Assembly: GCA_963756875.1 (NCBI GenBank)
Contig: CAVWPA010000003.1
Span: forward strand, 1,408,001 to 1,472,000
DNA length: 64,000 nt
Source of the DNA: an uncultured Verrucomicrobiae bacterium
Lineage (GTDB): Bacteria; Verrucomicrobiota; Verrucomicrobiia; Chthoniobacterales; UBA10450
Direction: 5' to 3'
The notes under the pieces are model-generated. The model ran no database searches. It was not told the origin of the DNA and worked only from the letters and a program-made list of their open reading frames with translations. The position numbers and the translations under genes are program-made. This document shows, in pieces, positions 14,977 to 52,452 of the stretch. Positions within the stretch are counted from its first letter, which is position 1. Each line of letters opens with the position of its first letter.

Positions 14977-17139
14977 ATGAAACTTTTCGCGCGCGCGCGT
15001 CCGCGAAAGAAACGGAGCAAACTCTTCCGTTACGGCTGGAAGATCACACTCATCGGCCTGGTCGGAGGCTCCGTGCTGTCCGTTATTGTGTTCTACGGAG
15101 TTTGGGCCGCGACTTTCGATATGAAGAAGGTCGGTGAAATGCCGGAGCGCAACACCGTGTTCGATGTGGACGGAAGAATTTACAGCCGTCTCGCCGGGGC
15201 GAACCGTTTGAGGGTCCCGCTCGATCAGGTCTCACCGCTTTTCATCAAGGCGTTGCTCGCCCGCGAGGACACCCGTTTTTATCAACACCCCGGGATCGAC
15301 TGGCATGGGATCGCTCGCGCGCTGATCCGCGATCTTCTAAGCGGTTCGGCAAAGGAAGGAGCGAGCAGCCTCACCCAGCAGCTTGCGCGCAACAGTCTCC
15401 CGCTGGGGGGTCGAACCATTAGCCGCAAGTTGCTGGAAGCGATGGTGGCGTTACGCATCGAGCAAACGTTCACCAAAAAACAGATTCTCGAGCTTTATGT
15501 GAACCGGATTTATTTTGGCTCCGGCTGTTATGGCGTTGAAACCGCTTCGCAGGCTTACTTTGGCAAGCACGCCTCAACCCTGAATCTTTCCGAAGCCGCG
15601 TTGCTTGCCGGTTTAATCCGCAGCCCCAATCGCTTTTCGCCTCTGAAAAATCCCGAAGGCGCGGCGCTCCAACGCGATGCTGTCCTGGACCGAATGGTCA
15701 AATTGAAAAAGATCTCGCTTGCCGATGCGATGCGCGCCAGGGCGACCAGGGTCAATACGCATCCCAAACGGATGCTCCAAATCCAGGAGAACTACGCGAT
15801 GGACGCCGTCCAGCGTGATTTAAACCTGCTCCTCAGTCAGGACCAGATCGATAACGGCGGTCTCTCTATATATACTACGCTCGATCCCGCCGTGCAGAAT
15901 GCCGCCCAGCAGGCGCTTGAGACTCAGCTCGCCAAAATCGAGCACCAGGCGAATTTCCACCATCCTATCAAGGCCAATTATCACCCGGTGGAAGGTCAGG
16001 AGGAGTCCTCCATGCCTTATTTGGAAGGGGCCGTAGTTTGCATCGATGACAAAAGCGGCGGCATTCGCGCGCTCGTGGGGGGTCGCGATTATTCGCAAAG
16101 CAAATTCAATCGCGCGCTTCCTCCCGCCAACCGGCAGATCGGGTCCGCTTTCAAGCCATTCGTTTACACGGTTGCGTTTTCGGAAGGCCTTCTTCCCGGT
16201 GCAGCCATCAGCGATGACCGCATCCAGCCCGGCGAAATCCAGGGCGCGGGAAATTGGTCGCCGGGGAATTCCGACGGCACTTATCGCGGCATAGAGTCCT
16301 GCTCTTATGGTTTAATTCATTCGCGCAACACCATGAGCGTGCGCGTCGGCCAGTTCGCCGGACTCGATGCGGTCCAGAAAGTCGCCACCACACTCAATCT
16401 CGGACAGAATATTCCGCGCGTTCCGGCGATCTATATCGGGTCGTTTGAAACCGACCTGAAAGATCTCACGGCGGCCTACACCGTGTTTCCCAATGCCGGT
16501 GTGCGCAAGCAGGCGTACATCATCGAGCGCATCGATGATCCCGAGCATCTGCCGATTTATCGCGCCGCGCATATTTCCGCGCCGGCGCTCAACCCGAGCG
16601 CTTCCTGGATGACTTCGCGTTTGATGGAAGAGGTGCTCACCCGCGGCACGGCTGCCAGCGCGCGTTCGTTAGGCTTCAAGCTGCCCGCCGCCGGGAAAAC
16701 CGGAACGACCAACGATTACAAGGACGCATGGTTTCTTGGTTATACCAGCGCACTTACCTGCGGTGTCTGGGTGGGGTTCGATCAGCCGACAACGATTATT
16801 CCCCACGGTTACGGGTCGGCGCTGGCGCTCCCGATCTGGGTGCAGGTGATGAACAAGGCCGCGCAACGATATCCGGCACAGGAATTTCAGCCCACCATGC
16901 CCATCGTACGCGCGCTGGTTTGCTCGGTTTCAAATCAGCTTGCCACAACCGGTTGCGAAGCGGCCGGCACAGCCTACGAAATTGATTTGCCCGCCGATAA
17001 AGTGCCCACCGTAGCATGCGAACTGCATGGCGGTCAGGAAATGCAGTTCGCGCAAAGACCGGGGGACATTGGCAAAAAGGCCAGCGAGCTTCCAAACAAG
17101 CTCTTTCAATCGCTCAAGAAACTGTTCGGCGGGAAATAA
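14977..17139 (+). CDS. Class A penicillin-binding protein (PBP1A family)
   Basis: Transglycosylase EDTRFYQH, GASSLTQQ and RKLLE; transpeptidase SAFK, SRN and KTGT motifs. Confidence 0.95.
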   Translation: MKLFARARPRKKRSKLFRYGWKITLIGLVGGSVLSVIVFYGVWAATFDMKKVGEMPERNTVFDVDGRIYSRLAGANRLRVPLDQVSPLFIKALLAREDTRFYQHPGIDWHGIARALIRDLLSGSAKEGASSLTQQLARNSLPLGGRTISRKLLEAMVALRIEQTFTKKQILELYVNRIYFGSGCYGVETASQAYFGKHASTLNLSEAALLAGLIRSPNRFSPLKNPEGAALQRDAVLDRMVKLKKISLADAMRARATRVNTHPKRMLQIQENYAMDAVQRDLNLLLSQDQIDNGGLSIYTTLDPAVQNAAQQALETQLAKIEHQANFHHPIKANYHPVEGQEESSMPYLEGAVVCIDDKSGGIRALVGGRDYSQSKFNRALPPANRQIGSAFKPFVYTVAFSEGLLPGAAISDDRIQPGEIQGAGNWSPGNSDGTYRGIESCSYGLIHSRNTMSVRVGQFAGLDAVQKVATTLNLGQNIPRVPAIYIGSFETDLKDLTAAYTVFPNAGVRKQAYIIERIDDPEHLPIYRAAHISAPALNPSASWMTSRLMEEVLTRGTAASARSLGFKLPAAGKTGTTNDYKDAWFLGYTSALTCGVWVGFDQPTTIIPHGYGSALALPIWVQVMNKAAQRYPAQEFQPTMPIVRALVCSVSNQLATTGCEAAGTAYEIDLPADKVPTVACELHGGQEMQFAQRPGDIGKKASELPNKLFQSLKKLFGGK

Positions 17140-17309: not shown

Positions 17310-17837
17310 GTGATGAAAATCTCCCGCAGCATCGTGGTAGCGCTATTAATCAGCGGAATAATCGTAGCCTCTACCCAGGCCGCCGGGCATGGAGGCGCTC
17401 TCACTCCGCTCCATAATACAACCAAACGCGGCGGTTACGTTATCGAGACGGTGGGCGACACCCTGCACCAGGCGCCGCCTCAGGATACCCGTCTGATCAT
17501 TCGCGTTTCCGCCGACAAAAAGCTGATTAAGCCGGCAAGCATCGCGCTGATCGACAAGAGCGGTGCTGCGATCAAGCCGGTGTTTCGTGAGGACCGAAAA
17601 GTTGGCCACGAAGAAAATACGGGGTTGCCCTTGTCGGTCGGCGGATACGGGGACACGTCGGGGGTTCATTCCACGGGCGTCGGAATCAATCTCAACAAGA
17701 TCTTTGGACCGCACGGCAGCTACGCCTACACGAAAGTGGATTGGCCGAAGAACGTGTTCACTGCGGACAAAAAACTGCAGATCGTTTTGCCCGGCGGGCA
17801 GGCGCTTCTTCTTCCGCTGACTGCAATCGCCCAATGA
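17310..17837 (+). CDS. Exported hypothetical protein (ORF A)
   Basis: Sec signal (KISRSIVVALLISGIIVASTQA); ATGA overlap with the next gene. Confidence 0.75.
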   Translation: MMKISRSIVVALLISGIIVASTQAAGHGGALTPLHNTTKRGGYVIETVGDTLHQAPPQDTRLIIRVSADKKLIKPASIALIDKSGAAIKPVFREDRKVGHEENTGLPLSVGGYGDTSGVHSTGVGINLNKIFGPHGSYAYTKVDWPKNVFTADKKLQIVLPGGQALLLPLTAIAQ

Positions 17838-18316
17838 AACCCCATGCTTTTATCTGCTCGCTCGCGATCGCTGCAATTGGTTTCATTCTGACCGGAAACG
17901 CATTCGCGAAACCGGCCGGCTGTCCCTGCAATCCATGCAAATGCGGCGTCTGTCATTGCGGTGGCGGCGGCGGCGGTGGTGGTGGTGGCGAGAAACAGGC
18001 ACATAAAAAGGAGGGCGGCAAAAAAGAGGGCGACAAACATCACCACGGGCGAGGGAATCATGAAGGAGGCAGCAGCGTCGGAGTGGGATTCGATGTCGAT
18101 CTTGGCGGCGTCGGACATCGTACGCGGGAACCGGATCCGTTTGCCGTTTCCGAAGGATCGTCCAGCTCACAAACACACGAGCGACATACGGCGAAAAACA
18201 AGGAGACCCATGTCGCCAACTCCAATCCATTTGCCGATATAAAGCTTACGGGGAAACAGGCCAAAAACATAGCCGCATCGGAAGGCTCTTCCGGGACGAC
18301 GTTGCCCAAAAAATAA
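17834..18316 (+). CDS. Exported Cys-cluster / poly-Gly / His-Lys-rich small protein (ORF B)
   Basis: ATG at 17834 overlaps the upstream TGA. Signal peptide ending NAFA, then GCPCNPCKCGVCHC, G10 and KHHHGRGNH. Confidence 0.8.
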   Translation: MKPHAFICSLAIAAIGFILTGNAFAKPAGCPCNPCKCGVCHCGGGGGGGGGGEKQAHKKEGGKKEGDKHHHGRGNHEGGSSVGVGFDVDLGGVGHRTREPDPFAVSEGSSSSQTHERHTAKNKETHVANSNPFADIKLTGKQAKNIAASEGSSGTTLPKK

Positions 18317-18364: not shown

Positions 18365-19861
18365 GTGGATCGGATTAGCTTGTTCGCGGCTGGTTGGTCC
18401 GCTGTTGCGGCGAGCCTCGTCTTTATCGGCAATCCCATTCTTGCCGACACACTGACGTCGCAAGTGCGGATCGACGTCAAAATCGTCGAGGTCAGCCGCA
18501 ACTCGACACGCGAGCTCGGCATTGATAATAGCCTCGCTGAAGCTCTTTCAAAGTTGCCGCCGGACGCTTCCAAGCTGCCCGCGCCCCAGACGTCGGTTCC
18601 GGTTTTGGGGCCGTCTCCTTCTGCCGGCGTCATTGGTCAGCGCCTTTTTCCCAACGAGGAAGCACCGTACAACATCACATTTAGCACGATGCTGACAGAC
18701 CCTCAGCTTGAAGCCATGCTGAAAGCGTTCGACCGTGCGAAGAACGCCAAAGTTCTTTCGGTGCCGACCGTCATGGCTCCGTATAATCAGCGTGCAAGCA
18801 TCGTCATTAATCCTTCGGTCCCGTTTCCCAACCAAACGCTGATCCTCGACGCGACGCCGCACCTCGGCGCGGATGGCAGCATCCTGATTACGATTGTTCC
18901 CAAAGTGTCGGAAGGGAACATTCTTCAACAGCCCACAGTGCAGCCACGGGAAGTCGCGAATCCGATCACCGTGGGGATCGACCAGGTTCCGGTGCTGGGC
19001 GGACTTTTCAAGAAGACTCAGACTCCCGAGCACAAGGAGAACCTGATCGTTTTCGTTACCGCTCAACCCGTCGATGTGTTTTCGCATTCCAGCAGTGGGA
19101 ACGGGTCGGATCCGGTTAAGGTGGATGCGGTCGGCACCGGCGAAACCATCGGACACGTCGGGGATCTGAACATTCAAAATCTTACGGATGGTCCGCTGCA
19201 TTTTTTCGTCCCGCCGATGATCCTCGAATCGATTAATGGCTCCGACCAGGATTACGTTTGTCCGCACGGCGAGAACGTGTCGATTCCCGCGGGTCAAACC
19301 AAAACGGTTCCCATGGATGGCGTTTGCATCAACCGGAACAAGCCGCCTGTCGGCAAAGGTGTCAGCGGCGCGCTCGTCGTGAACACGGTCGAACCCAATA
19401 TTGCCCAACATCCCGATTGTCATCTGCCCGCGAAGGCAGCCGGCAATTTGTTGCTCATTTGCGATTCGATTTATCAGGCGGCTGAAAAACTGCAGGAAGA
19501 AGGCGAGCTAAAGGAATTCCCTTACAAGAAAAAGAAGGAGCAAAAGGAGATCCTGGTGCAATGGAGCACCTGGGCCAACCCACGGATTTCCGAAGTCACA
19601 AAAGAACCGCCGGCGACGAAGGACGATCTAAAGAAGGTCGTTTACAAACAGGTTGAAGAAAAGGGAAAGCCGAGTCCCGGAACGAAGAAGAAGCTCGACC
19701 AGGGCATCGACACCATCTTCGAAAAAGTGGAGCTCACCTCAACGAAAGCCAAAGAGTTGGAAAAGCCCGATCCATTCGCCGGCGTGGAGCTAACAGGCGA
19801 GAAGGCCAAGAACGAGCAAGAGCCGGCCGCCCAAAGCCCGGCTCCGTCTCCAAAGGGATGA
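18365..19861 (+). CDS. Minimal secretin-like domain fused to conserved unknown domain X (ORF C)
   Basis: Secretin motifs QVRIDVKIVEVS..LGID, AKVLSVPTV..NQRASI, LDATPHL..DGSILITIVPKVS and VPVLGGLFK..KENLIVFVT; C-terminal half is paralogous to ORFs D-F. Confidence 0.75.
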   Translation: MDRISLFAAGWSAVAASLVFIGNPILADTLTSQVRIDVKIVEVSRNSTRELGIDNSLAEALSKLPPDASKLPAPQTSVPVLGPSPSAGVIGQRLFPNEEAPYNITFSTMLTDPQLEAMLKAFDRAKNAKVLSVPTVMAPYNQRASIVINPSVPFPNQTLILDATPHLGADGSILITIVPKVSEGNILQQPTVQPREVANPITVGIDQVPVLGGLFKKTQTPEHKENLIVFVTAQPVDVFSHSSSGNGSDPVKVDAVGTGETIGHVGDLNIQNLTDGPLHFFVPPMILESINGSDQDYVCPHGENVSIPAGQTKTVPMDGVCINRNKPPVGKGVSGALVVNTVEPNIAQHPDCHLPAKAAGNLLLICDSIYQAAEKLQEEGELKEFPYKKKKEQKEILVQWSTWANPRISEVTKEPPATKDDLKKVVYKQVEEKGKPSPGTKKKLDQGIDTIFEKVELTSTKAKELEKPDPFAGVELTGEKAKNEQEPAAQSPAPSPKG

Positions 19862-21356
19862 GAGAGCAAGATAACAGTCCGAAAGCCTGGCACCGGCGAC
19901 TTGGTCCATCACCGCGACCAGCATTGCGCGTGCTCTTCGTTCTGGGCTGGCTCTGTCTCGCTATTTCCGTTCTCGCCGACGAACCGAAGGTCACTAAGAA
20001 CGCTGATGGCAGTACCACCACAACTGAAAACGTGACTGTTACAGAAATGAATCGTCAGGGTGGCCTGAGTTACAAAGATTACCAGAAATCCACAACGCGG
20101 GACATCCGCGGAAAAATTACCAAAATCGAATGGTACCATCTGGGGAAGAAAGGGAAACGTCGCGCGCTCGGGCGCGTCTTGTTTCGTTCAGTCAGATCCC
20201 AAAACTCAACGGACCGTGATCACGACGTACACATATCAGAAAAATGGGACTCTCGTGAGTAAAGGGGAGGAGGTTTATTCGAACAAGGATGGAAGCCTGC
20301 TCCATGAGAAATCTGAGAACTATGACCCGACCGGGAAAAATGTGAATGCAGGCATAAGGCACGAATGGGAAGGTTGGGAGGACGGTAACACCAAAACATG
20401 GAAATCGGAGCAGTGGAATCCCAAGACCCAGGAATGGCAGCCGTTACCCATTAATCCCGGTCCTGAGACCCATCCTAAACTCGACAAGGCACTCGATGAC
20501 TACGCAAAGGATCACGGTAACGCTTCTCCCCTCGAGCCATCCGAGTCGGCTTCACCGTCTCCGACCAAACCGCCACCAAAGACGATCTCCTCTCTGCTTT
20601 CTAATAAAGAGCCTGAACCTGGCGATTGCCGGGACCGGCCAGACCATCGGGCACATTGCTGATTTCAGGCTCCAAAACCAAACGGATCAGCCGGTCAGTT
20701 TTGTCATCCCGGCGATGGTGTTGGAATCGAGCAGCGGCAAGAACCAGCATTACGCCTGTCCAAAAGGGCAGACGGTCGATCTTGGACCAAAACAGAGTAA
20801 AACCGTGCCAATCGATGGCGTGTGCCTCGACCGAAGCAAACCGCCGGCAGGCAAAGGCATGACCGGCGATTTGGTCATCAACGAAGCCAGCCCGGGAGGG
20901 ACAGCGATGGCCGGTTCGCATGTTCCGCTCAAGGACGCGAACAAAATGCTTCGGATCGCCAAATCCAAGTACGATGCGGCCGAGAAATTGGAAAAGGAGG
21001 GCGAGCTCAAGGAATTGCCTTATCACGACAAGCAAAAGCAGAAAGACATCATGGTTCAATGGAGCATCTGGAGCGACCCGCAGATTTCCGAGATTACCGG
21101 TGCGCCGCCGGCCACCAAAGAGGATTTGAGGAAAGTCGTTTACAAACAGGTGGAAGAAAAAGGGCCGATGACGCCGGCGACCAAAAAGAAAGTGGACAAG
21201 GGCATCGGCACCATCTTCGAGAAAGTCGAGCTCACTTCAGCAAAAGCCAAAGACCTCGAGGCGCCCGACCCATTTCAAAACGTCGAAGTCACCGGCGAAA
21301 AGGCGAAAGCTGAAAATGAGTCGCCGCCAGTCGAAAGCCCGGCTCCATCCCCGTGA
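19858..21356 (+). CDS. Exported domain-X paralog (ORF D), two apparent +1 frameshifts (~20183, ~20607)
   Basis: ORFs 19858-20262, 20216-20662 and 20496-21356 are collinear with ORF E once one T (20182-20184) and one A (20606-20608) are removed. Confidence 0.75.
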
Positions 21357-21375
21357 GCTTTTCGTCCCTGAAAAT

Positions 21376-22812
21376 ATGAAACAACAGATACACCACCCGA
21401 GAGCTCGCCCTCAGCTACGGCTCTGGCCCAACGTGGCGCCGGTGCTTGTCATTTTAGGTTGGTTCTGTCTTACCGGCACAATTGTTGCCGACGAACCGAA
21501 GGTCACAAAAAATCCCGACGGAACCACTACCACGATCGAGAAAGTCTTCTTCGACAAACTCTTCGGGAACCCTTTTGTCGGCCGCGGCAAGAAACGGACC
21601 ACTCGGGACAAAGATGGGAACCTCACCAAGATCGAGTGGGTGCGCGGGGGAAAGAAACGGGAACGCCCGGTCGTGGCGATATTTGTCGAACGTAATCCCA
21701 AGTCGAATCAGACGACGATAGCAACCTATACCTATGAGAAAGATGGAACTCTGCAATCAAAGAAGGAAGAGGTTTATAACAAAAATGGCGCGTTGATTCT
21801 GGACCGTTATGAGACTCACTTCCAGATGGGAAAAGCAACCACTTTCCAGACGGGAAAAGCAACCACTCCCGCTCCCTTAACCTTCAGCCATTCCTACGAG
21901 GGGAAGAGCTTGGTCGGGGGGCAACTAGACAATGCCTTAAAGGATGTTCAAAATAGATGGAGCTCGGCAACTCCGGCTTCCGAGGCGTCCCCGCCTTCTG
22001 CCACTCCGTCGCCTTCGCCGAAAGAAACGACTCCGGCAACAATCTCGTCGCTAATTCTCCAGAAGAAAGTGGGCTTCGCGATTGCCGGCACGGGCGAAAC
22101 CATCAGGCACATTGCCGATTGCATAATTCAAAATCAAACGGACCAGCCGGTCAGCCTTGTGATTCCGGCGATGGTGCTGGAATCGAGCAGCGGAAAGAAT
22201 CAGCATTACGCCTGTCCAAAAGAGCAGACGGTCGAACTCGGACCAAAGCAAAGCAAAACGGTGCCGATTGATGGCGTTTGCCTGGACCGAAGCAAACCGC
22301 CGGTTGGTAAAGGAGTGACCGGCGATCTCGTCATCAACGAAGCCAGCCCGGGAGGGACAGCGATGGCCGGTTCGCATGTTCCGCTGAAGGAAGCCAACAA
22401 AATGCTTCGCCTCGCCAAATCCAAGTACGATGCGGCCGAGAAATTGCAGAAGGATGGCGAGCTTAAGGAGCTGCCGTACCACGACAAGCAGATGCAGAAA
22501 GACATCATGGTTCAATGGAGCATCTGGAGCGATCCGCAGATTTCCGAGATTACCGGTGCGCCCCCGGCGACCAAGGACGATTTGAGAAAAGTCGTTTACA
22601 AACAGGTGGAAGAAAAAGGGCCAATGACGCCCAAGACCAAAAAGAAGTTGGACAAAGGCATCGACACCATCTTCGAAAAAGTCGAGCTCACTTCAGCAAA
22701 AGCGAAAGAGTTAGAGGCGCCCGATCCGTTCCAAAACGTCGAATTGACCGGCGAAAAAGCGAAGGGCGGAACTGAATCGCCGCCCCAAAAAGAGAAGGAG
22801 CCGCAACCATGA
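21376..22812 (+). CDS. Exported domain-X paralog (ORF E)
   Basis: Signal peptide then DEPKVTKN (as in ORF D), beta-rich N-domain, Pro/Ser linker, domain X. Confidence 0.85.
   Translation: MKQQIHHPRARPQLRLWPNVAPVLVILGWFCLTGTIVADEPKVTKNPDGTTTTIEKVFFDKLFGNPFVGRGKKRTTRDKDGNLTKIEWVRGGKKRERPVVAIFVERNPKSNQTTIATYTYEKDGTLQSKKEEVYNKNGALILDRYETHFQMGKATTFQTGKATTPAPLTFSHSYEGKSLVGGQLDNALKDVQNRWSSATPASEASPPSATPSPSPKETTPATISSLILQKKVGFAIAGTGETIRHIADCIIQNQTDQPVSLVIPAMVLESSSGKNQHYACPKEQTVELGPKQSKTVPIDGVCLDRSKPPVGKGVTGDLVINEASPGGTAMAGSHVPLKEANKMLRLAKSKYDAAEKLQKDGELKELPYHDKQMQKDIMVQWSIWSDPQISEITGAPPATKDDLRKVVYKQVEEKGPMTPKTKKKLDKGIDTIFEKVELTSAKAKELEAPDPFQNVELTGEKAKGGTESPPQKEKEPQP
21820..21867 (+). repeat. 24-nt in-frame tandem duplication (FQMGKATT/FQTGKATT)
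   Basis: TTCCAGATGGGAAAAGCAACCACT followed by TTCCAGACGGGAAAAGCAACCACT. Confidence 0.9.
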
Positions 22813-24656
22813 ATTACCGATTTTCTAGTCATAGATTGGGGGAGACAAGACACGAGCGTAGTTGGCGAGTCGTCTTTGGTTTGCTTTTTATTATCACTCT
22901 TGCGCTCCCTGCACCTTTTTTGCGCGCCCAGACGGACGCAAAGGGCAATCCAATGAGTGCCGAGGATCTCGTCAATAATCATGATTCTTCCACGACTCCG
23001 AAGGGCCGGTCCACTCAGGTTGACCGCAATCCCGACAGCCAGAACATCGATCATGTGTGGGTTTACGATCCGAAAGGGCGCAAGCGCCGGGAAATTCGTA
23101 TCGATCGTGATCCGCTCGGAAACGCGCATGTGGAATCCATCGATTTTCGACCGGACGAGAAGACTGCGAGCACGGAAACAACAACGAGCTTTGCTCCCGG
23201 TTTCGATGGCCAGCGCCATCCGACGGATCGCAAAACTATCGTGTACCCCACCGCCGGTGGGTTCGTTACGCCTGACGAGAAGCTGAAGCATTCTACCGGC
23301 TGGCAGGAAAAGTGGGAGGATGGACACTGGGTCCGCGTTGCGGAGTTGAAAGATGGTCAATGGGTCTCCACGCAGAAGCAACCGCCGCCGCAGGAAAAGA
23401 CGATCTCATCTCTGCTTTCCAATAAAAGCGTGAACCTGGCGATTGCCGGTACCGGCAACACCATCGGCGACATTGCCCATCTCAAGGTCCAAAATCTTAC
23501 CGATCAACCAATAAGTTGCGTTATCCCGCCAATGATCCTCGAGTCCACCAGCGGCAAGAATCAGCATTACGCCTGTCCCAAGGGCCAGACGGTGGCGATC
23601 AAGCCCCATGATACCGCCACAGTCCCCATTGATGGCGTTTGCATTAACCGCCACAAACCGCCGGTCGGTAAAGACGTAACGGGCGATCTGGTGATCAATA
23701 CCGGCGATCCTACCGCTCCGCAAAATCCCGATTCACATCTTCCGGCAAAGGACGCGAACAATCTTCTGCGCATCGCCAGGTCGAAGTATGACGCCGCCGA
23801 CAAGCTGCAAAAGGACGGCGAGCTGAAGGATCTGCCCTACCACGATAAGCAAAAGCAGAAGGACGTTGTCGTGCAATGGAGCACCTGGACGGATCCGGAT
23901 ATTTCGGAAATCGTGGGCGGGCCTCCCGCAACAAAGGACGATTTGAAAAAAGTTGTCTACAAACAGGTGGAAGAGAGCGGGCCGATGACCCCGGGCACCA
24001 AAAAGAAGGTGGACAAGGGGATCGACACCATCTTCGAAAAAGTCGAGCTCACTTCAAAGAAAGCCAAAGACCTGGAAGAGCCTGATCAGTACGCAGAGAC
24101 GGGGACTCCGCCCAACACGGTCGAAATCGCGGATCATTCCGGGGATACAACGACCCAGGAAAAGCCAAAAGGAAAAGGAAGAGGAAAGGGTAAAGGGAAA
24201 GGCAAAGGCGGAAAGAAGTGGCCCAAACCAATCCAGGATTGGCTGGATAAAAAGAAAGCCGCGGATGATGCCGACAACGCGAAAAAGTGGGCACAGGATC
24301 AGTGGGACAGGGACCTTGAAAACTACTGCTTGCGAAACAGCGAGCATTACCGCGAGCTAAGACCAAAACAAGATGAGAAGTCGATAAAAGCCTTCAGAAA
24401 GAACGGCACGCAGACAGATAAGGATGATTTCGAAAAGGGTGAGCGCGAACTTAAGACACTCCGGCAACAATTCGCGCGGGACTTCCAGAAGACGGATCAA
24501 GCCAAGGAAGATTCTCAAATAATCCGTGATTCTGAAAAAGCGGCCGACGCCGCCCACGAAGCGGAGCAAAAAGCCGGAAAAAACATAGATCCGGCAACCA
24601 AGTCAGTGGTGGAAGCAGAGGAACCCAAATCCGAGATCGTTCCAGGTGTGTGGTGA
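22809..24656 (+). CDS. Exported domain-X paralog with (GK)n linker and charged helical C-terminal extension (ORF F)
   Basis: ATGA overlap; signal peptide; YD-like segment (WVYDPKGRK); domain X; KGKGRGKGKGKGKGGKK; helical tail. Confidence 0.85.
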   Translation: MNYRFSSHRLGETRHERSWRVVFGLLFIITLALPAPFLRAQTDAKGNPMSAEDLVNNHDSSTTPKGRSTQVDRNPDSQNIDHVWVYDPKGRKRREIRIDRDPLGNAHVESIDFRPDEKTASTETTTSFAPGFDGQRHPTDRKTIVYPTAGGFVTPDEKLKHSTGWQEKWEDGHWVRVAELKDGQWVSTQKQPPPQEKTISSLLSNKSVNLAIAGTGNTIGDIAHLKVQNLTDQPISCVIPPMILESTSGKNQHYACPKGQTVAIKPHDTATVPIDGVCINRHKPPVGKDVTGDLVINTGDPTAPQNPDSHLPAKDANNLLRIARSKYDAADKLQKDGELKDLPYHDKQKQKDVVVQWSTWTDPDISEIVGGPPATKDDLKKVVYKQVEESGPMTPGTKKKVDKGIDTIFEKVELTSKKAKDLEEPDQYAETGTPPNTVEIADHSGDTTTQEKPKGKGRGKGKGKGKGGKKWPKPIQDWLDKKKAADDADNAKKWAQDQWDRDLENYCLRNSEHYRELRPKQDEKSIKAFRKNGTQTDKDDFEKGERELKTLRQQFARDFQKTDQAKEDSQIIRDSEKAADAAHEAEQKAGKNIDPATKSVVEAEEPKSEIVPGVW

Positions 24657-24680: not shown

Positions 24681-25280
24681 CTAGGGCATCACGGTAACCG
24701 GGGTCCCGACGCTCACCTCGTCGAACAGTTCGGCAATGTCCTTGTGCAACATGCGAAGGCATCCATGTGAAACCGATTTTCCGACCGTTCTCGGATGCGG
24801 CGTGTCGTGGAAGCCGACCGCGATCTTCCCGTTGGTCCATATCCCGATCCAGTAGCGCCCGAGTTCGTTTCCAGGGGCGCCGGCAGGAAATATTTTTCCC
24901 GTGATCGGGTGTTTCCACGCGGGATTTTCAATCATCTGAAAGACGCGGAAATCGCCGAGCGGGGTTTCCCATCCGGGGCGCCCCACGGCGATGGGATAGG
25001 TTGTGATTTCCGTGTCGCCGCGATAAAGCGCGACCTCATGACGGCTGCGACTCACCTCAAGGTGGACCAGCGCTGTCGGCACCTGATCTGAGACGGTCGG
25101 GATCTCGATGATCTGTCCGACAGCAGAAGAAACTCCTGCGATCACCACGATCGGGAGCAAACTCCACCATGCGGCCGATGGACGCCATGCGCTCACTGCT
25201 TTCAAATCACATCGTCGATGGAGAAGAAATGCAACAGGAAAAATTGCCGGGAGCGCCAAACCTCTCGAGCGCTGGGCCAA
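24681..25280 (-). CDS. L,D-transpeptidase (YkuD family); start uncertain
   Basis: YPIAVGRPGWETPLG and GFHDT..SVSHGCLRM catalytic motif. Confidence 0.92.
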   Translation of the reverse strand: MAQRSRGLALPAIFPVAFLLHRRCDLKAVSAWRPSAAWWSLLPIVVIAGVSSAVGQIIEIPTVSDQVPTALVHLEVSRSRHEVALYRGDTEITTYPIAVGRPGWETPLGDFRVFQMIENPAWKHPITGKIFPAGAPGNELGRYWIGIWTNGKIAVGFHDTPHPRTVGKSVSHGCLRMLHKDIAELFDEVSVGTPVTVMP

Positions 25281-25516: not shown

Positions 25517-27127
25517 ATGACTCAAGCCTCTTCTTTGAAATTGCCCGACGGTGTTGAGATTCGAGGAAACGTCGGGCCGCGGTTCGACCATATTCTCACC
25601 CCGGAAGCGCTCGCATTTGTGGCAAAGCTTGAACGCGCGTTCGGCATTCGGCGGCTGGAATCGCTGGAACGGCGGGCAGGGCGCCAGGCAGAGTTGGATC
25701 AGGGTGGGTCACTCGATTTTTTACCCGAGACCAAATCAATTCGGGAGAGCGAATGGCAATGCGCTCCCATTCCGCCGGATATCCGGGATCGGCGGGTCGA
25801 GATCACCGGGCCGACGGATCGAAAGATGGTGATCAACGCACTCAATTCGGGCGCGAAAATTTTCATGGCAGACTTCGAGGACGCAAATTCACCCACCTGG
25901 CGGAACATGGTGGAAGGCCAGATTAATCTGTGGGATGCCATTCGGCGGACCATTGAGTTTACCAATCCCGAAGGAAAGGAATACAAACTCAACCAGGAGG
26001 TTGCGGTTCTGATGCCGCGGCCGCGCGGCTGGCATCTGGTGGAGAAACACATGCTGGTGGATAGCCGGCCCGTTTCCGGCGGTCTTTTCGATTTCGGCCT
26101 GTTCTTTTTCCATAACGCCAAAGAACTGATCGCGCGAGGAAGCGGTCCTTATTTCTACCTGCCGAAGTTGGAAAGCCATCTGGAAGCGCGGATTTGGAAC
26201 GACGTATTCAAGGTCGCCCAGGACGAATTGGGAATCCCGCAGGGGACGATTCGCGCCACCGTTCTGATCGAAACGATTCCGGCCGCTTTCGAGATGGACG
26301 AAATCCTGTACGAGCTGCGGGATCATTCCGCCGGCCTCAACTGCGGACGATGGGATTACATTTTCTCCTGCATTAAAAGGTTCCGGAACAAGCGCGATTT
26401 TCTGCTGGCTGATCGGGCGCTTATTACCATGACCACGCACTTCATGCACAGCTACTCATTGTTGTGCATCAAAACGTGTCATCGCCGGAATATCTTTGCG
26501 ATGGGCGGTATGGCCGCGCAGATCCCGGTAAAAAATAATCCAAAGGCTAACGAGGAAGCATTCGCCAAGGTCCGGGCGGACAAGGAGCGGGAGGCGGGTG
26601 ATGGGCATGACGGCACCTGGGTGGCCCATCCCGGCATGGTCCAGCTGGCCACCGATGCGTTTAACGAGAAAATGCCGCAGCCTAACCAGATCGCCAGGAA
26701 ACGCGATGACGTGAACGTCGCGGCGCGCGATTTGCTCGATTTTCGGCCATCGCAACCGATCACCGAACAAGGTTTGCGCACGAATGTCAGCGTGGGCGTG
26801 CAATACCTCGAGGCCTGGCTTCGCGGTCACGGTGCCGTGCCCATTTTCAATCTAATGGAAGACGCCGCCACTGCCGAAATTTCGCGGGCTCAGGTCTGGC
26901 AATGGATCCGCCACCCGCAGGGCGCGCTGACCGACGGGCGCAAGGTGAGCAAGGAACTGTTCCGATCGGTTCTGGCGGAAGAGCTGGACAAAATCAGAAA
27001 TGAGATTGGGCAGAAAAGATTCGCGGCCGGGAAATTCGACGCTGCTCGGCAGTTGTTCGATGAAATTACAACGAACGACGAGTTCGTGGAGTTTCTAACC
27101 CTGCCCGGATACGACAGGCTCGATTAG
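25517..27127 (+). CDS. aceB: Malate synthase A
   Basis: [39 protein letters not shown] and [14 protein letters not shown] motifs. Confidence 0.98.
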
Positions 27128-27131
27128 CAGA

Positions 27132-28403
27132 ATGGTTCCGAAAAATAGAGCGGCAGGCGACGATTGGGAATCGAATCCGCGCTGGCGCGGCATTCACAGA
27201 ACCTACTCGTTAGGGGACGTGAAGCGGTTGCAGGGAAGCGTGACAATCGAGCATACGCTGGCCCGGCGCGGAGCGGAGAAATTGTGGCAGCTGTTGGAAG
27301 CCGAGCCTTACCTCCACACTCTCGGCGCGCTAACCGGGAACCAGGCGGTTCAACAGGTTCGCGCAGGATTGAAGGCGATCTATGTCAGTGGCTGGCAGGT
27401 AGCAGCCGACGCCAATCTCGCGGGTCAGATGTATCCCGACCAGAGTCTTTATCCGGTTAACAGTGTGCCGGTGCTGGTGAAGCGGATCAACCAAGCCTTG
27501 CAGCGGGCCGACCAGATCGCGCACGCCGAGGGCAACAATCAGATCGACTGGTTCGCCCCGATTGTGGCCGATGCCGAGGCGGGCTTCGGCGGGCCGCTCA
27601 ACGTCTTTGAACTGGTCAAAGCGATGATTGAAGCCGGCGCGGCTGCGGTTCACCTCGAAGACCAATTGGCGAGCGAGAAGAAATGCGGTCACATGGGCGG
27701 CAAGGTTCTGGTGCCGACGCGCAGCGCATTGACGCACCTGACTGCGGCGCGCCTGGCCGCCGATGTTTCGAATGTTCCGACCATCATTCTCGCCCGGACC
27801 GATGCCAACGCGGCTTCGCTATTGACCAGCGATGCCGATGAGCGCGATCACGCCTTTCTCACCGGCGAGCGGACGCCGGAAGGTTTTTATCGCGTGCGGG
27901 CCGGAATTGACCAGGCGATCGCGCGCGGTCTCAGTTATGCCCCGCTGGCCGACATGATTTGGTGCGAAACGGCTGAACCGAATCTGGCGGAAGCCAGAAA
28001 ATTTGCAGAGAGCATTCGAGAGAAATTTCCGGACAAGCTGCTGTCCTACAATTGTTCGCCGTCCTTCAATTGGAAAAAGAAGCTGGATAGCGCCACGATC
28101 GGAAAGTTTCAGCGAGAACTAGGCGCCATGGGTTACAAGTTTCAATTTGTGACCCTGGCCGGTTTTCACGCACTCAACTACAGCATGTTTCACCTGGCCC
28201 GGGGATACACGGAACGCGGGATGGCTGCCTATTCGGAGTTGCAGGAGGCGGAATTTGCCGCTGAATCGCTCGGCTACACGGCTACCAAACATCAGCACGA
28301 AGTCGGCACCGGTTATTTCGACGATGTGGCGCACGTGATTGCGGGCGGCAAAAGCTCGACCGTCGCGCTGCATGGATCAACCGAGCGGGAACAATTTCAT
28401 TAG
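27132..28403 (+). CDS. aceA: Isocitrate lyase
   Basis: [20 protein letters not shown] signature; YNCSPSFNW. Confidence 0.98.
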
Positions 28404-28443
28404 CCTGTAATAAACAGCCTCGAGCCGGTCCTTAGAACTCAGT

Positions 28444-28511
28444 TCACCACGAAGAACACGAAGCAAAGCAAATACATGTCATCTTCGTGACCTTCGTGTT
28501 CTTCGTGGTGA
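28444..28511. repeat. Perfect 20-bp inverted repeat built of 9-nt CACGAAG units between aceA and aceK
   Basis: TCACCACGAAGAACACGAAG (28444-28463) / CTTCGTGTTCTTCGTGGTGA (28492-28511). Confidence 0.85.
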
Positions 28512-28541
28512 TTAAGAAATTCCGGTGCGACTGACTGGAGA

Positions 28542-30311
28542 ATGGATTCGGGGAATGCAACATCGTTGACCGATAGCAGGCTGGCCGCGCTTTGCGCCCA
28601 AACTGTTCAGGACGCATTCAACATTTATCAACGGCGTTTCGACGAAATTACCCTGCGGGGACGGGACCGGTTTCTGGCTCGGGATTGGGCAGGATCATTC
28701 GGTGATGCTGCCGCTCGGCTCCAACTTTATACGAAGGTCCTGGACGACCTCACCACCGCCATCAAATGCCTGATGGAATCCCGTTTGCCGGATCGCGCGA
28801 TCTGGAGCGCGATTAAAGCGGTTTACTCTTCACTAATTGCCGGGTCCGCCATGTGGGAGGTCGCTGAGAGTTTTTTTAATTCTCTGACTCGCCGTGTGTT
28901 CGCAACGGAAGGCGTCGATCAGGCGATCGAGTTCGTGGATACCGATTTCGATCCACCGCCTGACCCGGAAACCAATCAGCAGCGATCATATCGCGGCCAG
29001 CCTCTCGATCGATTGTTGTTTGCCGCCCTGACGGATACGACCGGCGGAGGTTTCGCAGAGGAATGTTGGTCGGATCTCAAGGCAACCGTGAGGGTGGCAG
29101 GCGAACGGCTGGAGGCAGCGTTCTTCGAGAGTGGCGCGGAGCGCGAAGCGAACGGCGATTGGCGGCTCGAGATGGCGGGCCGGGTCTTTTATCGCGGACG
29201 AGGCGCTTACTTTGTGGGACTTCTTGGATGCGGTTCCGCCAGTATGGTGGAATTGCCCATCGCGCTTTGCCTGCGGCATCCAAGCAAACAGGGAATCAGT
29301 CTGGACGCCGTCCTGCATGGAGAGAGCGATCTGGCGGTGCTGTTTTCCTACACCCGGGCTTATTTTCGGGTAACAGCGAAATGTCCGCACCAGCTGATCC
29401 GGTATCTCGAACAGCTAATGCCCCGCAAACGAAGGGTGGATCTTTACAACGCGATCGGATTTCATCGCCATGGCAAAACGGAATTTTATCGCGATTTCGT
29501 GAGTCATCTGCGCGATTCGACGGATCGGTTCGGGCTCGCCGAAGGAGTGCCCGGGATGGTGATGCTGGTTTTCACTCTTCCGAGCTACGACGTCGTGTTC
29601 AAGTTGATCAAGGACCAGTTCGATTTTCCGAAGGATAGCACGCGTGCCGAAGTGATGAGTCGCTATCGCCTGGTGTTTGAGCACGATCGGGCCGGCCGGT
29701 TGGTGGAAGCCCATGAATTTGAGCATCTCCGGATCGCGCGGGAGCGGTTCGACGAGCGCTTGCTCGACCAACTTCTGCGGGAAGCCCGCCAAATCGTGCG
29801 AGTTGAGGGCGACGACGTGATGATCAGCCATGCTTACGTCGAGCGTCGGATCAAGCCGCTGAATCTGTTCTTCAGGAACGCCGACGAGATCGAGTCCGCC
29901 ACCGCGGCGATCGATTATGGCCAGGCCATCAAGGACATGGCCGCGTCGAACATTTTTCCCGGCGATTTGCTGACCAAGAATTTCGGGGTGACGCGGACCG
30001 GCCGGGTGGTGTTTTATGATTACGACGAGCTTTGTTTCCTAACGGATTGCAATTTCCGCGATCTCCCGAAAGCAACGACATACGAGGAGGAAATATCTGC
30101 TGAGCCATGGTTCTCGGTCCGCGCTAACGATATTTTCCCGGAGGAGTTCCCCCGGTTTCTATCGCTGCCCGGTCCGGCTCGGACCGCGTTATTCGAACGG
30201 CATGCCGATTTGTTTGGCGCCGATTTTTGGCGGGGCGTTCAACAGAAACTTCGCGACGGCGAGCTGCCGGAGATTTTTCCGTACAAAGCAGAGCGGCGGC
30301 TAAAGACGTAA
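28542..30311 (+). CDS. aceK: Isocitrate dehydrogenase kinase/phosphatase
   Basis: AESFFNS, HGKTEFYRD, GMVMLVFTLP..VVFKLIKD and NIFPGDLLTKNFGVTRTGRVVFYDYDE motifs. Confidence 0.96.
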   Translation: MDSGNATSLTDSRLAALCAQTVQDAFNIYQRRFDEITLRGRDRFLARDWAGSFGDAAARLQLYTKVLDDLTTAIKCLMESRLPDRAIWSAIKAVYSSLIAGSAMWEVAESFFNSLTRRVFATEGVDQAIEFVDTDFDPPPDPETNQQRSYRGQPLDRLLFAALTDTTGGGFAEECWSDLKATVRVAGERLEAAFFESGAEREANGDWRLEMAGRVFYRGRGAYFVGLLGCGSASMVELPIALCLRHPSKQGISLDAVLHGESDLAVLFSYTRAYFRVTAKCPHQLIRYLEQLMPRKRRVDLYNAIGFHRHGKTEFYRDFVSHLRDSTDRFGLAEGVPGMVMLVFTLPSYDVVFKLIKDQFDFPKDSTRAEVMSRYRLVFEHDRAGRLVEAHEFEHLRIARERFDERLLDQLLREARQIVRVEGDDVMISHAYVERRIKPLNLFFRNADEIESATAAIDYGQAIKDMAASNIFPGDLLTKNFGVTRTGRVVFYDYDELCFLTDCNFRDLPKATTYEEEISAEPWFSVRANDIFPEEFPRFLSLPGPARTALFERHADLFGADFWRGVQQKLRDGELPEIFPYKAERRLKT

Positions 30312-50000: not shown

Positions 50001-51274
50001 TGACCGTGGATGCGCGGGTCACGATCATGCGTAACCCGGACAAAACTCCACGTTCCGTTCTTATTATTAGCACCGACATAACCGAGCAAAAGAGACTCCA
50101 GATGCAATTACTCCGGGCGCAGAGGCTCGAAAGCATCGGTACCCTGGCCAGCGGCGTGGCGCATGATCTGAACAACATTCTCACGCCGATTTTGATTTGC
50201 GCGCAGACTCTCCGCAATGGTCTGGACGGGGAAGATCGAGAATCGGCTCTCTCGCTCATTGAGGAAAGCGCTCAACGTGGCGCGAGCGTGGTGAAGCAAG
50301 TGCTTACATTTGCGCGAGGGGTCGAGGGCGAGCGCGTTTCGATCAAGCCCAGCCATCTCATTCACGAGATGGTCGATATCGCGCGGAAGACATTTCCAAA
50401 ATCGATCGAGATAACCAGCCGCTATCCGGAAGACCTTTGGTCGATCAAAGGCGATCCGACACAACTCCATCAAGTAATGCTCAATATCTCGGTCAATGCG
50501 CGCGATGCCATGCCGGCCGGGGGAAAGATCGCTTTCGCCTCGGACAATTTTGATGTCGATGAACATTACGCAACGATGTCTGCCGGGGCAACGCCCGGGC
50601 CTCACGTCATGCTGCGAATTACCGATACGGGCAGCGGCATGCCAAGAGAGACGATCGACAAAATATTCGACCCGTTTTTCACGACGAAGGAACCGGGCAA
50701 GGGGACCGGTCTGGGGCTGTCCACCGCGCTCGGGATCGTGAAGAGCCACGGCGGATTTGTTTCTGTTTACAGCGAAGTGGGCGAAGGCACGACCTTCAAG
50801 ATATTTTTGCCCGCAGAGGTGAGCGACGCAAGCTTGGTGTCGTCGAAAACGGGCGTTGCTCCCGCTGAGGGAAACGGAGAGCTGGTGCTGGTGGTTGATG
50901 ATGAGGAGAATATTCTCCGGGCGACTAAAACGGCCCTGGAACGGCACCACTATCGTGTTATCGCGGCGAACGATGGGGTGGAGGCGCTCGCGCTTTTCGC
51001 GCAACAGATGCAAGCGATCAGGGTCGTGCTCACGGACATCGCGATGCCTTACATGGATGGCGTGGCGTCAATTCGCGCGCTTAGAAAAATGAGATCCGAT
51101 GTCCCGATTATCGCGTTTACTGGAGACGCCGGACAAGCGCGTCTCAACGAGCTCCAGGCGATGAACGTCAATAGTTTTCTAACCAAGCCTTTCAACACAG
51201 AGAATTTACTCGCGGCTGTTCACACAGCGATCGGCACAACCAACAAAGTAGAAGCAGAAGTGAAAGCGACATGA
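47018..51274 (+). CDS. Large cytoplasmic hybrid histidine kinase with about 8 PAS/PAC modules
   Basis: Repeated DITERK-type junctions, GVAHDLNN, GKGTGLGL and a receiver domain. Confidence 0.95.
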   Translation: MPIASTNRNPSKNPIREIGQQNLTLKKDCDERLVYNLEEKDSEPEIARAELLQLLAHTPAVIYRLRIDEGRVTPVVVSDNIERLLGVSAAESCRHKWWLESLHPEDRERVLGTLAKSLTRDGYSMEYRLRHKDGSYHWVEDNNRMIHDGAGNATAAVGVWTDITERKQADDRLKASLKEVSDLKTALDEHAIVAITDPEGKITYVNDKFCSISKYSREELLGQDHRIINSGFHSKEFIRDLWVTIKSGKVWEGEFKNKAKDGSFYWVDSTIVPFLDEQGRPRQYVAIRTDITERKRAEEELKFKNVVLSAQQQSSIDAILVVDQDAKILSFNRRFVEMWGIPSELIEKKDDNLVLQWVANQLADSPSFLQRVQYLYEHRREIDQEEILLKDGRIFDRYSTSMFGTDDRYYGRIWYFRDITERKRVEERIEWLSRFPSENPNPVLRVSAQGVLEYANAAADTLLPTLGAEVGGAVNAEWQARIGETLANGRPVNIEFQVGDRTFRAVLSPVVNRGYVNLYADDITERKQAEEKLRASQQLIQGIIDAIPVRVFWKDKNLVYLGCNAVFARDAGFADPKAIIGKDDYQMGWRDLAESYRSDDRQVIESGCPKLLIEEPLTTSDGKTITILTSKIPLRDSSGEIIGAIGTYMDVTERKRADEAMRASEIRYRRLFESAKDGILILDADTGMVVDVNPYLVELLGFSREAFLEKKIWELGFFKDIVANQDNFAELRQQEYIRYEDKPLETANGSRIDVEFVSNVYLVNGREVVQCNIRNIMERKAAAEASRRQERQYQLLFNSHPSPAWVYEPETLAFLAVNDAAVAHYGYTREEFLAMTLCDIRPKEDIPALLEADKTRADVAQGRGIWRHCKKNGETILAEVFTASTQFEDRVARLAFCIDVTERKRAEEELREQADIINRAHDAIIVRDFTTSRIVFWNAGAERAYGWSAQESIGRLSDEFLFADPKEWEEHLKALVSTGEFRGELKLVRKNGKKVTVDARVTIMRNPDKTPRSVLIISTDITEQKRLQMQLLRAQRLESIGTLASGVAHDLNNILTPILICAQTLRNGLDGEDRESALSLIEESAQRGASVVKQVLTFARGVEGERVSIKPSHLIHEMVDIARKTFPKSIEITSRYPEDLWSIKGDPTQLHQVMLNISVNARDAMPAGGKIAFASDNFDVDEHYATMSAGATPGPHVMLRITDTGSGMPRETIDKIFDPFFTTKEPGKGTGLGLSTALGIVKSHGGFVSVYSEVGEGTTFKIFLPAEVSDASLVSSKTGVAPAEGNGELVLVVDDEENILRATKTALERHHYRVIAANDGVEALALFAQQMQAIRVVLTDIAMPYMDGVASIRALRKMRSDVPIIAFTGDAGQARLNELQAMNVNSFLTKPFNTENLLAAVHTAIGTTNKVEAEVKAT

Positions 51275-52452
51275 ATAGGCAAATCATTGACGATCTCCTG
51301 TCGGCCATGATCGCAAGCCAGGACGGCATTTCCGATTTGCTCTTTACCGTTGGCCGGCCGCCGCTGGTCGAGGCCTACGGGGTGCTGGAAGAGTTTCCGG
51401 TCCAAACGGCGGATTCTGCTGCCTTTGGACCACAGGAAATTAGTGAACTCGTCGATCATCTTATCAATGGCGACGAGCGGCTCAGGCGGGATCTGGCCGA
51501 TTGGGGTTCATGCGACTGCGGTTACACGCTTAGGGATGTCGCCCGCTTTCGCGTCAATATTTTTAGACAAAATGGCAAGCAGGCCATCGTGATGCGCAGG
51601 CTCCAATCCGAGATCCCGACGCTCGAAAAGCTCGGGTTGCCACCGGTCTTTAACGAGATGATCAAGGAGAAAAACGGAATCATTTTCGTCACCGGTGCTA
51701 CCGGCAGCGGCAAGACAACGACCCTGGCCGCCGTGCTCAACGAACTCAATCAAACCCAGCCGATCCATATCATTACGCTGGAAGATCCGATCGAGTTTTT
51801 GCACCCGCAGCTGCGGGCGGTTTTTCATCAACGCGAACTCGGCAAGGATTTTCCTGATTTTGCCCGCGGCCTGCGGGCCGCGCTGCGCGAGGCGCCGAAA
51901 GTGATTCTAGTCGGTGAAATTCGTGATCGTGAGACCATGGAAATCGCGATGACCGCTTCCGAAACCGGCCACATCGTTTATGCTACCCTGCACACGATCA
52001 GCGCGGGCCAGACCATCAATCGGATTCTTGGATTGTTCAGCAAGGATGAAGAGCCGCTATTGCGTCAGCGGCTTGCGGATACCGTTCGTTACATAGTAAG
52101 TCAGCGCCTCGTTAGCAAGATTGGCGGGGGACGCCTGCTTCTCACCGAGATCATGGGCAGCAGTCTGCGCACGCGCGAAACCATTATTTACGGCGAGCGT
52201 GAGAACCGCACGTTCCAGGAAATCATCGAGGCAGGCACGACTTTGGGCTGGCATACCTTCGATCAATCGTTGCTCAAAGCCTACGAAGACTATCTTATTG
52301 AAGAAGGCGTGGCGCTCACCTTCTGCACACATAAACATAAGATGCAGAAAGACATCGACCTGATTAGGAAACTCAGAGACGGAATCCTGGACATGCCATC
52401 CGGACTTCAGATGGAAAGCGAACTGGGTATGCCCGCCACCTCAATCTCGTAG
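51271..52452 (+). CDS. PilT/PilU-family type IV pilus retraction ATPase
   Basis: RFRVNIF, GATGSGKTT, TLEDPIEF, ILVGEIRD and ETGHIVYATLHT motifs. Confidence 0.92.
   Translation: MNRQIIDDLLSAMIASQDGISDLLFTVGRPPLVEAYGVLEEFPVQTADSAAFGPQEISELVDHLINGDERLRRDLADWGSCDCGYTLRDVARFRVNIFRQNGKQAIVMRRLQSEIPTLEKLGLPPVFNEMIKEKNGIIFVTGATGSGKTTTLAAVLNELNQTQPIHIITLEDPIEFLHPQLRAVFHQRELGKDFPDFARGLRAALREAPKVILVGEIRDRETMEIAMTASETGHIVYATLHTISAGQTINRILGLFSKDEEPLLRQRLADTVRYIVSQRLVSKIGGGRLLLTEIMGSSLRTRETIIYGERENRTFQEIIEAGTTLGWHTFDQSLLKAYEDYLIEEGVALTFCTHKHKMQKDIDLIRKLRDGILDMPSGLQMESELGMPATSIS

Follow-up and report, generated by a model that had tools for sequence, protein, structure and literature searches.

Within the 64,000-nucleotide stretch of DNA analysed here (the window, at its full length), which comes from an uncultured Verrucomicrobiae bacterium (assembly GCA_963756875.1, contig CAVWPA010000003.1, positions 1,408,001 to 1,472,000), we found a gene encoding a 498-amino-acid protein in which a signal peptide is followed directly by a reduced secretin-homology domain, and then by a linker and a second domain, referred to here as domain X. 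Secretins are textbook giant gated pores, and the secretin structures matched in this analysis come with periplasmic N domains, which couple them to a secretion or pilus machine. From the comparisons presented below we conclude with high confidence that the fusion is not the pore of a known machine, and that it represents a conserved, lineage-restricted, reduced secretin core joined to a new domain.

We propose that the secretin-homology domain may have been pared to its wall-forming core, i.e. the first long strand, the helix, the ‘TP’ hairpin and the last strand, having lost every periplasmic N domain and most of both gate hairpins, and that it would no longer serve type II, type III or type IV-pilus machinery but act as an N-terminal carrier for domain X, itself probably the conserved working part common to the neighbouring Sec-exported paralogues. 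Such a family would show that the secretin fold is reusable outside secretion, and its reduced core would be a natural minimal construct for asking what secretin assembly needs.

Secretin part of the fusion protein

The fusion gene and the parts of its product are as follows.

18365..19861, forward strand: secretin-X fusion gene (P0001, 498 amino acids), from the open reading frame (ORF) listing, 24 full-length homologues and the family alignment A1
18365..18445, forward strand: signal peptide, residues 1-27, ending ILA/DT, with no lipobox, read by eye
18446..19075, forward strand: reduced secretin-homology domain, residues 28-237 (210 amino acids), from hidden Markov model (HMM) and profile matches, strands in an AlphaFold2 (AF2) model, Foldseek and VIA-align
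19076..19111, forward strand: Ser/Gly linker HSSSGNGSDPVK, residues 238-249 (12 residues), with a predicted local distance difference test score (pLDDT) below 50 at 243-246
19112..19762, forward strand: domain X, residues 250-466, from the AF2 model and invariant columns in 54 sequences
19763..19861, forward strand: disordered tail with the motif PDPFAGVELTGEKAKNE, pLDDT below 50 at residues 469-498

In the ORF listing, no start codon lies between the preceding in-frame stop and GTG 18365, and an N-terminal extension of the 498-amino-acid protein is therefore impossible. The first secretin strand, QVRIDVKIVEV, starts at residue 33, five residues after the predicted cleavage site, which agrees with the first-pass annotation, where the secretin strands had been placed a few residues past the signal peptide, spanning approximately 200 amino acids ahead of domain X. 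The fusion homologues in alignment A1 have the same layout, with AxA-type cleavage sites directly ahead of the first secretin strand, and the Ser/Gly linker differs in length among them. The tail motif PDPFAGVELTGEKAKNE repeats the end of the last helix of domain X (FEKVELTSTKAKELE) and is found in only some homologues. Soil-metagenome contigs with at least 99% identity span positions 18464-18929 and 19127-19514 with no indels; the short lower-gate region described below is therefore not an assembly artefact of this record.

Scored against PF00263 in a Pfam scan, as the first-pass annotation had suggested, the protein gave 38.8 bits with a cut-off of 27.5 (44.6 bits when the in-frame pieces were summed), and approximately 117 of its residues (123-203 and 206-234) cover all 169 positions of the model. 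With NCBIfam, the GspD model TIGR02517 scored 65.6 bits over residues 28-158 (family cut-off 351 bits), and the GspD, PilQ, MshL and SctC models matched approximately residues 28-177, all far under their full-length cut-offs. The PHROG family of phage pIV also matched the secretin part (E 1.2e-8), this being the only PHROGs match of the fusion protein, and PADLOC gave no matches for it. When the family profile was compared with the PDB, the best match was PilQ of V. cholerae (VcPilQ, 6w6m), with profile positions 36-233 aligned to chain residues 316-569 at E 4.4e-14; PilQ structures, with E values of 4e-14 to 1e-12, were followed by GspD, RcpA, InvG and pIV. We found no match at E<=1 to N0, STN, Secretin_N, AMIN or BON in the fusion with Pfam or NCBIfam, and N-type secretin domains were likewise absent from the two genes upstream in the Pfam scan at the same threshold. 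The absence of N domains before the barrel, as first annotated, extends to the 18 aligned members and to seven longer ones. In addition, the AF2 monomer of the fusion, built from an 18-sequence alignment, has a mean pLDDT of 76, with values of 73-89 across most of the secretin part. The first 14 rows of a Foldseek search against the PDB with this model were all secretins (best E 7.6e-5, template modelling (TM) score ~0.13), as were the top 26 rows in VIA-align (Z 4.5-6.8, 106-171 residues aligned over model residues 32-237). On the strength of the sequence matches in particular, we regard the window protein as a true secretin homologue without N domains.

Residues 28-237 align to 254 amino acids of VcPilQ and to 268 amino acids of the host genome's own PilQ-like secretin. 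In the profile alignment, the family skips VcPilQ residues 440-452, directly after G439, and residues ~489-526, a stretch that takes in T493 and the strand following it. According to PMC7545093, each VcPilQ subunit contributes four strands to the barrel wall and two hairpins to the gate, with G439 as the gate hinge; the lower gate hairpin contains S448 and S453, and the upper one T493. Taken with these residue roles, the two gaps indicate that the family lacks the lower hairpin's tip as well as the entire upper gate hairpin and the next strand. Relative to VcPilQ, ~13 residues are missing from the lower gate hairpin of the window protein, and ~30 from its upper one together with the strand after it; Q142 and T164 are separated by 22 residues as opposed to 35 in VcPilQ, and the TP motif (T164-P165) and VPVLG (V208) by 44 residues as opposed to ~74 (counted on the alignment). 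The latter segment had rightly been thought too short for the gate hairpins at the outset, and aligning the protein with PilQ, also proposed at that stage, located the losses in the lower-hairpin tip and the upper gate hairpin.

The secretin part has kept the first long strand, a variable lip region, the helix at 112-125 and the ‘vlsvP’ strand, as well as the TP hairpin and last strand, and the strands retained are presumably those that form the barrel wall in secretin structures. The lip-equivalent region of the window protein is of normal length, but is Pro/Gly-rich and forms short helices in the AF2 model. In P0021, a metagenome protein of 632 amino acids, this region is reduced to ~15 residues between the first strand and the helix, compared with ~60 in the others. 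Members also differ between the TP hairpin and the last strand: VPVLGGLF is kept and the GQTxVxGG strand is gone in the subgroup of the window protein, the reverse is true of the P0007 subgroup, and P0020 has kept both. Across the 18 aligned members the secretin segment measures 175-212 amino acids and has nine invariant residues, among them Q114, P134, P165, G171 and L227 (alignment A1). Thus the gate and lip appear to have been lost piecemeal while the core, i.e. the first strand, helix, ‘isxP’ strand, TP hairpin and last strand, was kept, and the alignments indicate that the gate region is under loosened constraint, yet the gene has been retained.

Such piecemeal loss, differing among members, would also be expected if the segment were a soluble periplasmic beta-domain of secretin descent, making no oligomer or membrane contact and serving as a spacer or binding module for domain X. 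The secretin half evolves faster than domain X (see below), and the AF2 monomer folds with pLDDT 73-89 over most of the segment without partners, both of which would suit a soluble domain. Against this, we take the retained parts (the TP hairpin plus the first and last strands, both long) to be the ones that build the inter-subunit wall in solved secretins, and a monomer would have difficulty in keeping long exposed edge strands soluble. We consider a soluble domain unlikely.

The fusion family and domain X

In a search for relatives of the whole fusion, covering proteins of 273-872 amino acids, 24 of the 119 non-self matches listed keep the full architecture, with at least 89% query cover, 43-72% identity and lengths of 420-712 amino acids. 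All 24 have intact open reading frames and none has N0-N3. Alignment A1 holds 18 of the 25 family members, counting the query, and leaves out P0005, P0011, P0012, P0013, P0016, P0021 and P0025; in all seven longer members the signal peptide is followed at once by the secretin strand, and the extra length is at the C-terminus only. The fusion also occurs in broken or truncated form in two further proteins, P0026 and P0087. The large C-terminal fusion described at first annotation is therefore a family character, conserved domain X being present in all 24 homologues; relative to VcPilQ, the additions C-terminal to the secretin part amount to 260 amino acids in the window protein.

These data bear directly on the possibility, also raised in the first-pass annotation, of a degenerate relic or unique deletion, i.e. 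a decaying secretin remnant joined by accident to a neighbouring X gene and without function. The homology domain is indeed shortened and divergent, and the next gene downstream has two frame breaks. We nevertheless find this explanation scarcely credible: the search for intact homologues returned 24 that share the architecture, open frames and the invariant residues named above, synteny extends over three genomes whose copies of this protein are just 51-55% identical, and soil contigs of independent origin agree with the window at 99% identity or above.

When the secretin part alone was used in phmmer against 1.84 billion representatives, 581 matches were obtained at E<=1e-3 and nine at E<=1e-10, of which at least seven belong to the fusion family (P0026, P0003, P0012, P0019, P0020, P0024 and P0022). 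The nearest checked match outside the family, P0121 (E 5.7e-13), is an ordinary secretin with N-terminal domains. Each of the other apparently N-domain-less matches that we inspected (P0135, P0142, P0147, P0151, P0216, P0253 and P0258) starts within an N3-like stretch and has the look of a truncated gene prediction, and they were set aside. We also noted P0128, an unrelated metagenome protein of 546 amino acids in which a near-complete secretin domain directly after the signal peptide scores 113.7 bits with PF00263 and is joined through a poly-Gly linker to a beta-rich C-terminal half of 280 amino acids; it was considered as a sign of a wider class and rejected as such, since no homologue covers more than 47% of it or has its architecture, and it may be a singleton or a mis-call. 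Our literature search, which was partly swamped by the hormone secretin, did not find a description of such a fusion protein.

Among the 18 aligned members, identity to the window copy is 55-82% in domain X and 28-62% in the secretin part, and by this comparison domain X is the better conserved half of the fusion. In a quick maximum-likelihood tree of 54 X domains, fused copies are separate from 42 unfused ones (P0087, the truncated fusion, is unlabelled there), with two changes of the fused/unfused label compared with a mean of 10.2 after shuffling and 0 of 500 shuffles as low. The topology fits a single old fusion event.

Domain X was modelled alone by AF2 from 54 sequences (pLDDT 88.6, predicted TM score 0.82) as a domain of ~220 amino acids in which an eight-strand beta-sandwich (251-340) is followed by a five-helix bundle (356-465). 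These sequences have 27 invariant columns. C321 (codon 19325-19327) is invariant in 54 of 54, within GVC[IVL][NED]R at the end of a strand, and Q399, W400 and W403 are invariant within a QWxxW motif ([VI]QW[STG][TV]W) on the second helix of the domain (390-404). E288, S289, Q295, R324 and Q429 are also invariant and H264 nearly so. P0006, P0123 and both of the copies in G423 (the one further genome with X found among relatives; see below) have no counterpart of the other cysteine, C299, and C321 is therefore not merely half of a disulfide. Domain X had no match in Pfam, NCBIfam, PADLOC or PHROGs, nothing better than E 0.9 against PDB sequences and no Foldseek match to the PDB at E<=1e-3; VIA-align on the Foldseek list returned generic beta-sandwich matches only (Z up to 6.5), and in the ESM Atlas domain X, like sp175 (a neighbouring secreted protein described below), fell in unnamed clusters only. 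A YkuD-like active site (GC[IL]R, compared with GVCxNR in domain X) was also considered and was rejected at an hhalign probability of 0.1. Judged by these sequence and structure searches, domain X is a domain of no described family.

A wide structure search with domain X gave a best Z of 6.5, to the sandwich alone, and only six of the 50 rows listed span both halves of the domain (5a0g, 6fwv, 2xi9, 5dcq, 5a0l and 6fwy). All six are thioester domains (TEDs) of Gram-positive TIE adhesins, an assignment that in the case of 5dcq we presume; they align 114-138 residues over model positions ~6-227, with a root mean square deviation of 3.6-4.5 and Z scores of 5.0-6.1 that are within the background of the search. 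As described in PMC4450167 and PMC6194298, TEDs carry the motif [YFL]C-Phi-zeta on a strand and a TQxxPhiW motif on a central helix that contacts the Cys, their bond-forming Gln lies on a strand after the helices, and they are reported exclusively from Gram-positive bacteria. Domain X resembles them in its invariant Cys at a strand end, within a VC-hydrophobic-hydrophilic context, although the residue before C321 is Val and not Tyr, Phe or Leu, and in the Q-to-W spacing of the second helix (Q-x-x-x-W), which is that of TQxxPhiW with the Thr replaced. In contrast with TEDs, all eight strands of the AF2 model precede the five helices and none follows, where TEDs have the strand with the bond-forming Gln; of the invariant Gln residues, Q295 is ahead of a sandwich strand and Q429 within a helix. 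In addition, the TED profile PF08341 matched none of the 54 X proteins at E<=10, nor anything in the whole host genome. The thioester likeness is kept as a weak lead of low probability.

An extension of this idea is that domain X is a covalent-chemistry head, either a TED-like Cys-Gln warhead (distantly related or convergent) or a Cys/His enzyme, and that some dozen copies of it are borne by a secretin-derived ring with neither gates nor N domains; we regard this as decidedly improbable. If it were true, such a ring could link the outer membrane covalently to peptidoglycan, or else to neighbouring proteins through their Lys-bearing ‘VELTGEKAK’ tails. That would amount to a surface polymer or envelope tether of a new kind in abundant soil Verrucomicrobia, and diderm bacteria would have their first domain of thioester type.

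Gene neighbourhood and host genome

The genes that surround the fusion and bear on its role are listed below.

14977..17139, forward strand: class A penicillin-binding protein (PBP), PBP1A, with transglycosylase and transpeptidase domains, upstream of the fusion (Pfam, synteny)
17310..17837, forward strand: sp175, a secreted protein of 175 amino acids, with copies 61-77% identical beside X genes in nine of 11 related loci
17834..18316, forward strand: small Gly/Cys/His-rich secreted protein ending in NPFADIKLTGKQAKN (synteny; C-terminal half conserved in nine of 11 loci)
19858..21356, forward strand: X paralogue 1, of unfused type, in three frames with two breaks (tblastn with paralogue 2)
21316..22812, forward strand: X paralogue 2 (P0098), with signal peptide, DEPKVTKN-type repeats and domain X (ORF listing, homology)
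22809..24656, forward strand: X paralogue 3 (P0093), with signal peptide, repeats, domain X and a Lys/Glu-rich C-terminal extension (ORF listing, homology)
24681..25280, reverse strand: YkuD L,D-transpeptidase, downstream of the array (Pfam; also downstream in L006 and L007)

The host genome has four copies of domain X, all in one tandem array made up of the fusion and the genes at 19858-21356, 21316-22812 and 22809-24656. The three unfused copies have a signal peptide and a repeat-rich N-terminal region, and the Lys/Glu-rich extension of paralogue 3 is a coiled coil by eye. The frame breaks of paralogue 1 lie near 20141-20211 and 20496-20662. One soil contig (depth 2.5) is without one base at 20182, inside the first of them, and that break could reflect a strain difference or an error of assembly and need not mean a dead gene; the second lies outside the contig cover.

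sp175 has no Pfam match and is conserved about as strongly as domain X. The likely start of the small Gly-rich protein is the ATG of MKPHAF inside the ORF 17741-18316, and the protein carries CPCNPCKCGVCHC, a run of ten Gly residues and HHH (window 17834-18316; 7597-7965 in L006). Its end, DPF...NPFADIKLTGKQAKN, echoes the tails of the X proteins (PDPFxxVELTGEKAK), including the fusion tail PDPFAGVELTGEKAKNE, and the shared motif may be a common docking or substrate peptide. Also upstream of the fusion are genes for an extracytoplasmic function (ECF) sigma factor and a glutaredoxin-like protein, in addition to the class A PBP.

We compared 11 related loci; the records of such loci include Verrucomicrobiae, Chthoniobacterales and Candidatus Udaeobacter metagenome-assembled genomes. 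The order PBP1A, sp175, small Gly-rich protein and X gene is kept in L006-L008, L010 and L012. The L009 sequence is not long enough to take in PBP1A, and L015 has its X gene ahead of the two small genes. The full synteny, from PBP1A, sp175 and the small protein through the fused and unfused X genes to YkuD, is kept in L006 and L007, and these are the only two of the 11 loci in which the secretin part is present. On the carrier reading, the secretin core would be one of several alternative N-terminal carriers for domain X in an envelope module beside a peptidoglycan synthase, and domain X is a candidate for new envelope or adhesion chemistry next to the main peptidoglycan synthase.

Both gate hairpins being truncated, the protein could also be envisaged as a working gate-less outer-membrane pore, i.e. 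a one-protein exporter that takes the unfused X paralogues, and perhaps its own domain X, to the cell surface. In the window, L006 and L007 alike, one or more unfused X paralogues with a signal peptide come after the single fused gene, and the fused and unfused X domains are old separate lineages kept side by side, as would suit an exporter and its substrates. Several observations make such a pore unlikely. It would have no N domains for coupling to an energy source and no machine genes nearby; the Pfam scan of the 33 window ORFs found no type II or type III secretion, type IV pilus, Tad or phage-export genes adjoining the fusion, as was also the case in L006 and L007, and the sole T2SSE-type ATPase (PilT/T2SSE) is ~31 kb off at 51271-52452, amid two-component genes. 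The lip region does not resemble that of secretins and is largely missing from P0021, and unfused X genes occur without a fused partner in G423 and L008-L012. Moreover, a permanently open hole of secretin size would be expected to breach the outer-membrane barrier, as it does in leaky secretin mutants.

Elsewhere the host genome encodes two canonical secretins of ~150 bits each. A third host secretin match (G000:C3:1635406-1635843, L003; 69.6 bits) has two TGA codons in a 196-amino-acid frame and looks broken. Directly downstream of the module, at 25517-30311, is a full glyoxylate-shunt set, i.e. malate synthase, isocitrate lyase and the AceK kinase/phosphatase, and the region 39088-62656 is dense in PAS histidine kinases, hybrid kinases and response regulators, including proteins of 1418 and 1123 amino acids. 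Domain X was found in one of 400 genomes sampled across the phylum, this being the genome of the window itself, and among 60 relatives in one further genome, G423, which has two unfused copies. More than 200 X proteins are present in metagenome protein sets and the DNA matches to the locus are from soil metagenomes; no RNA datasets holding the locus were listed. Udaeobacter-like Chthoniobacterales, to which the organisms with the fusion belong, are among the commonest and least cultivable of soil bacteria.

Possible placement of domain X and comparison with known secretins

Returning to the reading of the secretin core as a carrier, we infer that it most likely forms oligomers and is associated with the outer membrane, like other secretin subunits. 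Solved secretins have their C-terminus on the periplasmic side of the barrel wall, and domain X would therefore lie beneath the outer membrane, as several copies should a ring form. That the core still self-associates like secretin subunits and keeps domain X at the inner face of the outer membrane is the likeliest of the readings considered here, at about even odds. The first-pass idea of an ungated or repurposed secretin ring displaying many copies of domain X is partly supported: the missing N domains, the reduced gate hairpins and the fused conserved domain bear it out, and the ring, an open pore and an outward display would be hypothetical.

A number of our findings weigh against this reading. 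The Pro/Gly-rich, helical lip region and its near-absence in P0021 make membrane insertion doubtful, and there is no lipobox in the signal peptide and no pilotin gene. The same slot in L008, L009, L010 and L012 holds an X protein with another, shorter N-terminus and no secretin part, and G423 has only unfused X genes, from which it follows that the secretin part is dispensable for the module; together with the loss of the lip in P0021, X proteins of this kind in the slot make an obligatory pore less likely. Having PBP1A and YkuD as neighbours amounts to guilt by association only. The fold match is also modest, with Z scores below 8, approximately half of the domain aligned and a Foldseek TM of ~0.13, but scores of this order agree with homology and are what a monomer model should give when the subunit in question normally folds in a ring.

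Of the known systems, the PilQ secretins (V. cholerae 6w6m, N. meningitidis 4av2 and M. xanthus 3jc8) share with the fusion the QVQIEA-VEV first strand, the helix and the ‘isxP’ strand, as well as the ‘vtPxi..dG’ hairpin, VPVLG-LF and the ‘LxxFvTPxxv’ last strand. The fusion differs from PilQ in having no AMIN, N0 or N3 domains, in being ~44 residues shorter, in a lip region that is not conserved and in the absence of the lower-gate tip (440-452), the hinge glycine and the upper gate hairpin with the next strand. GspD, PulD and XcpQ (5wln, 5wq8 and 6hcg) are the top Foldseek matches of the fusion (E 7.6e-5; VIA-align Z 5.3-6.6), but in comparison with these proteins it has no N0-N3, no S domain or pilotin and no gsp operon, and its gates are truncated. 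Two small secretins, pIV of phage f1 (7ofh; E 1.2e-8) and RcpA of the Tad system (8odn; VIA-align Z 6.4), also match the fusion and, within the structures matched, are among the shortest secretins with solved structures. Both pIV and RcpA keep their periplasmic N domains and complete gates.

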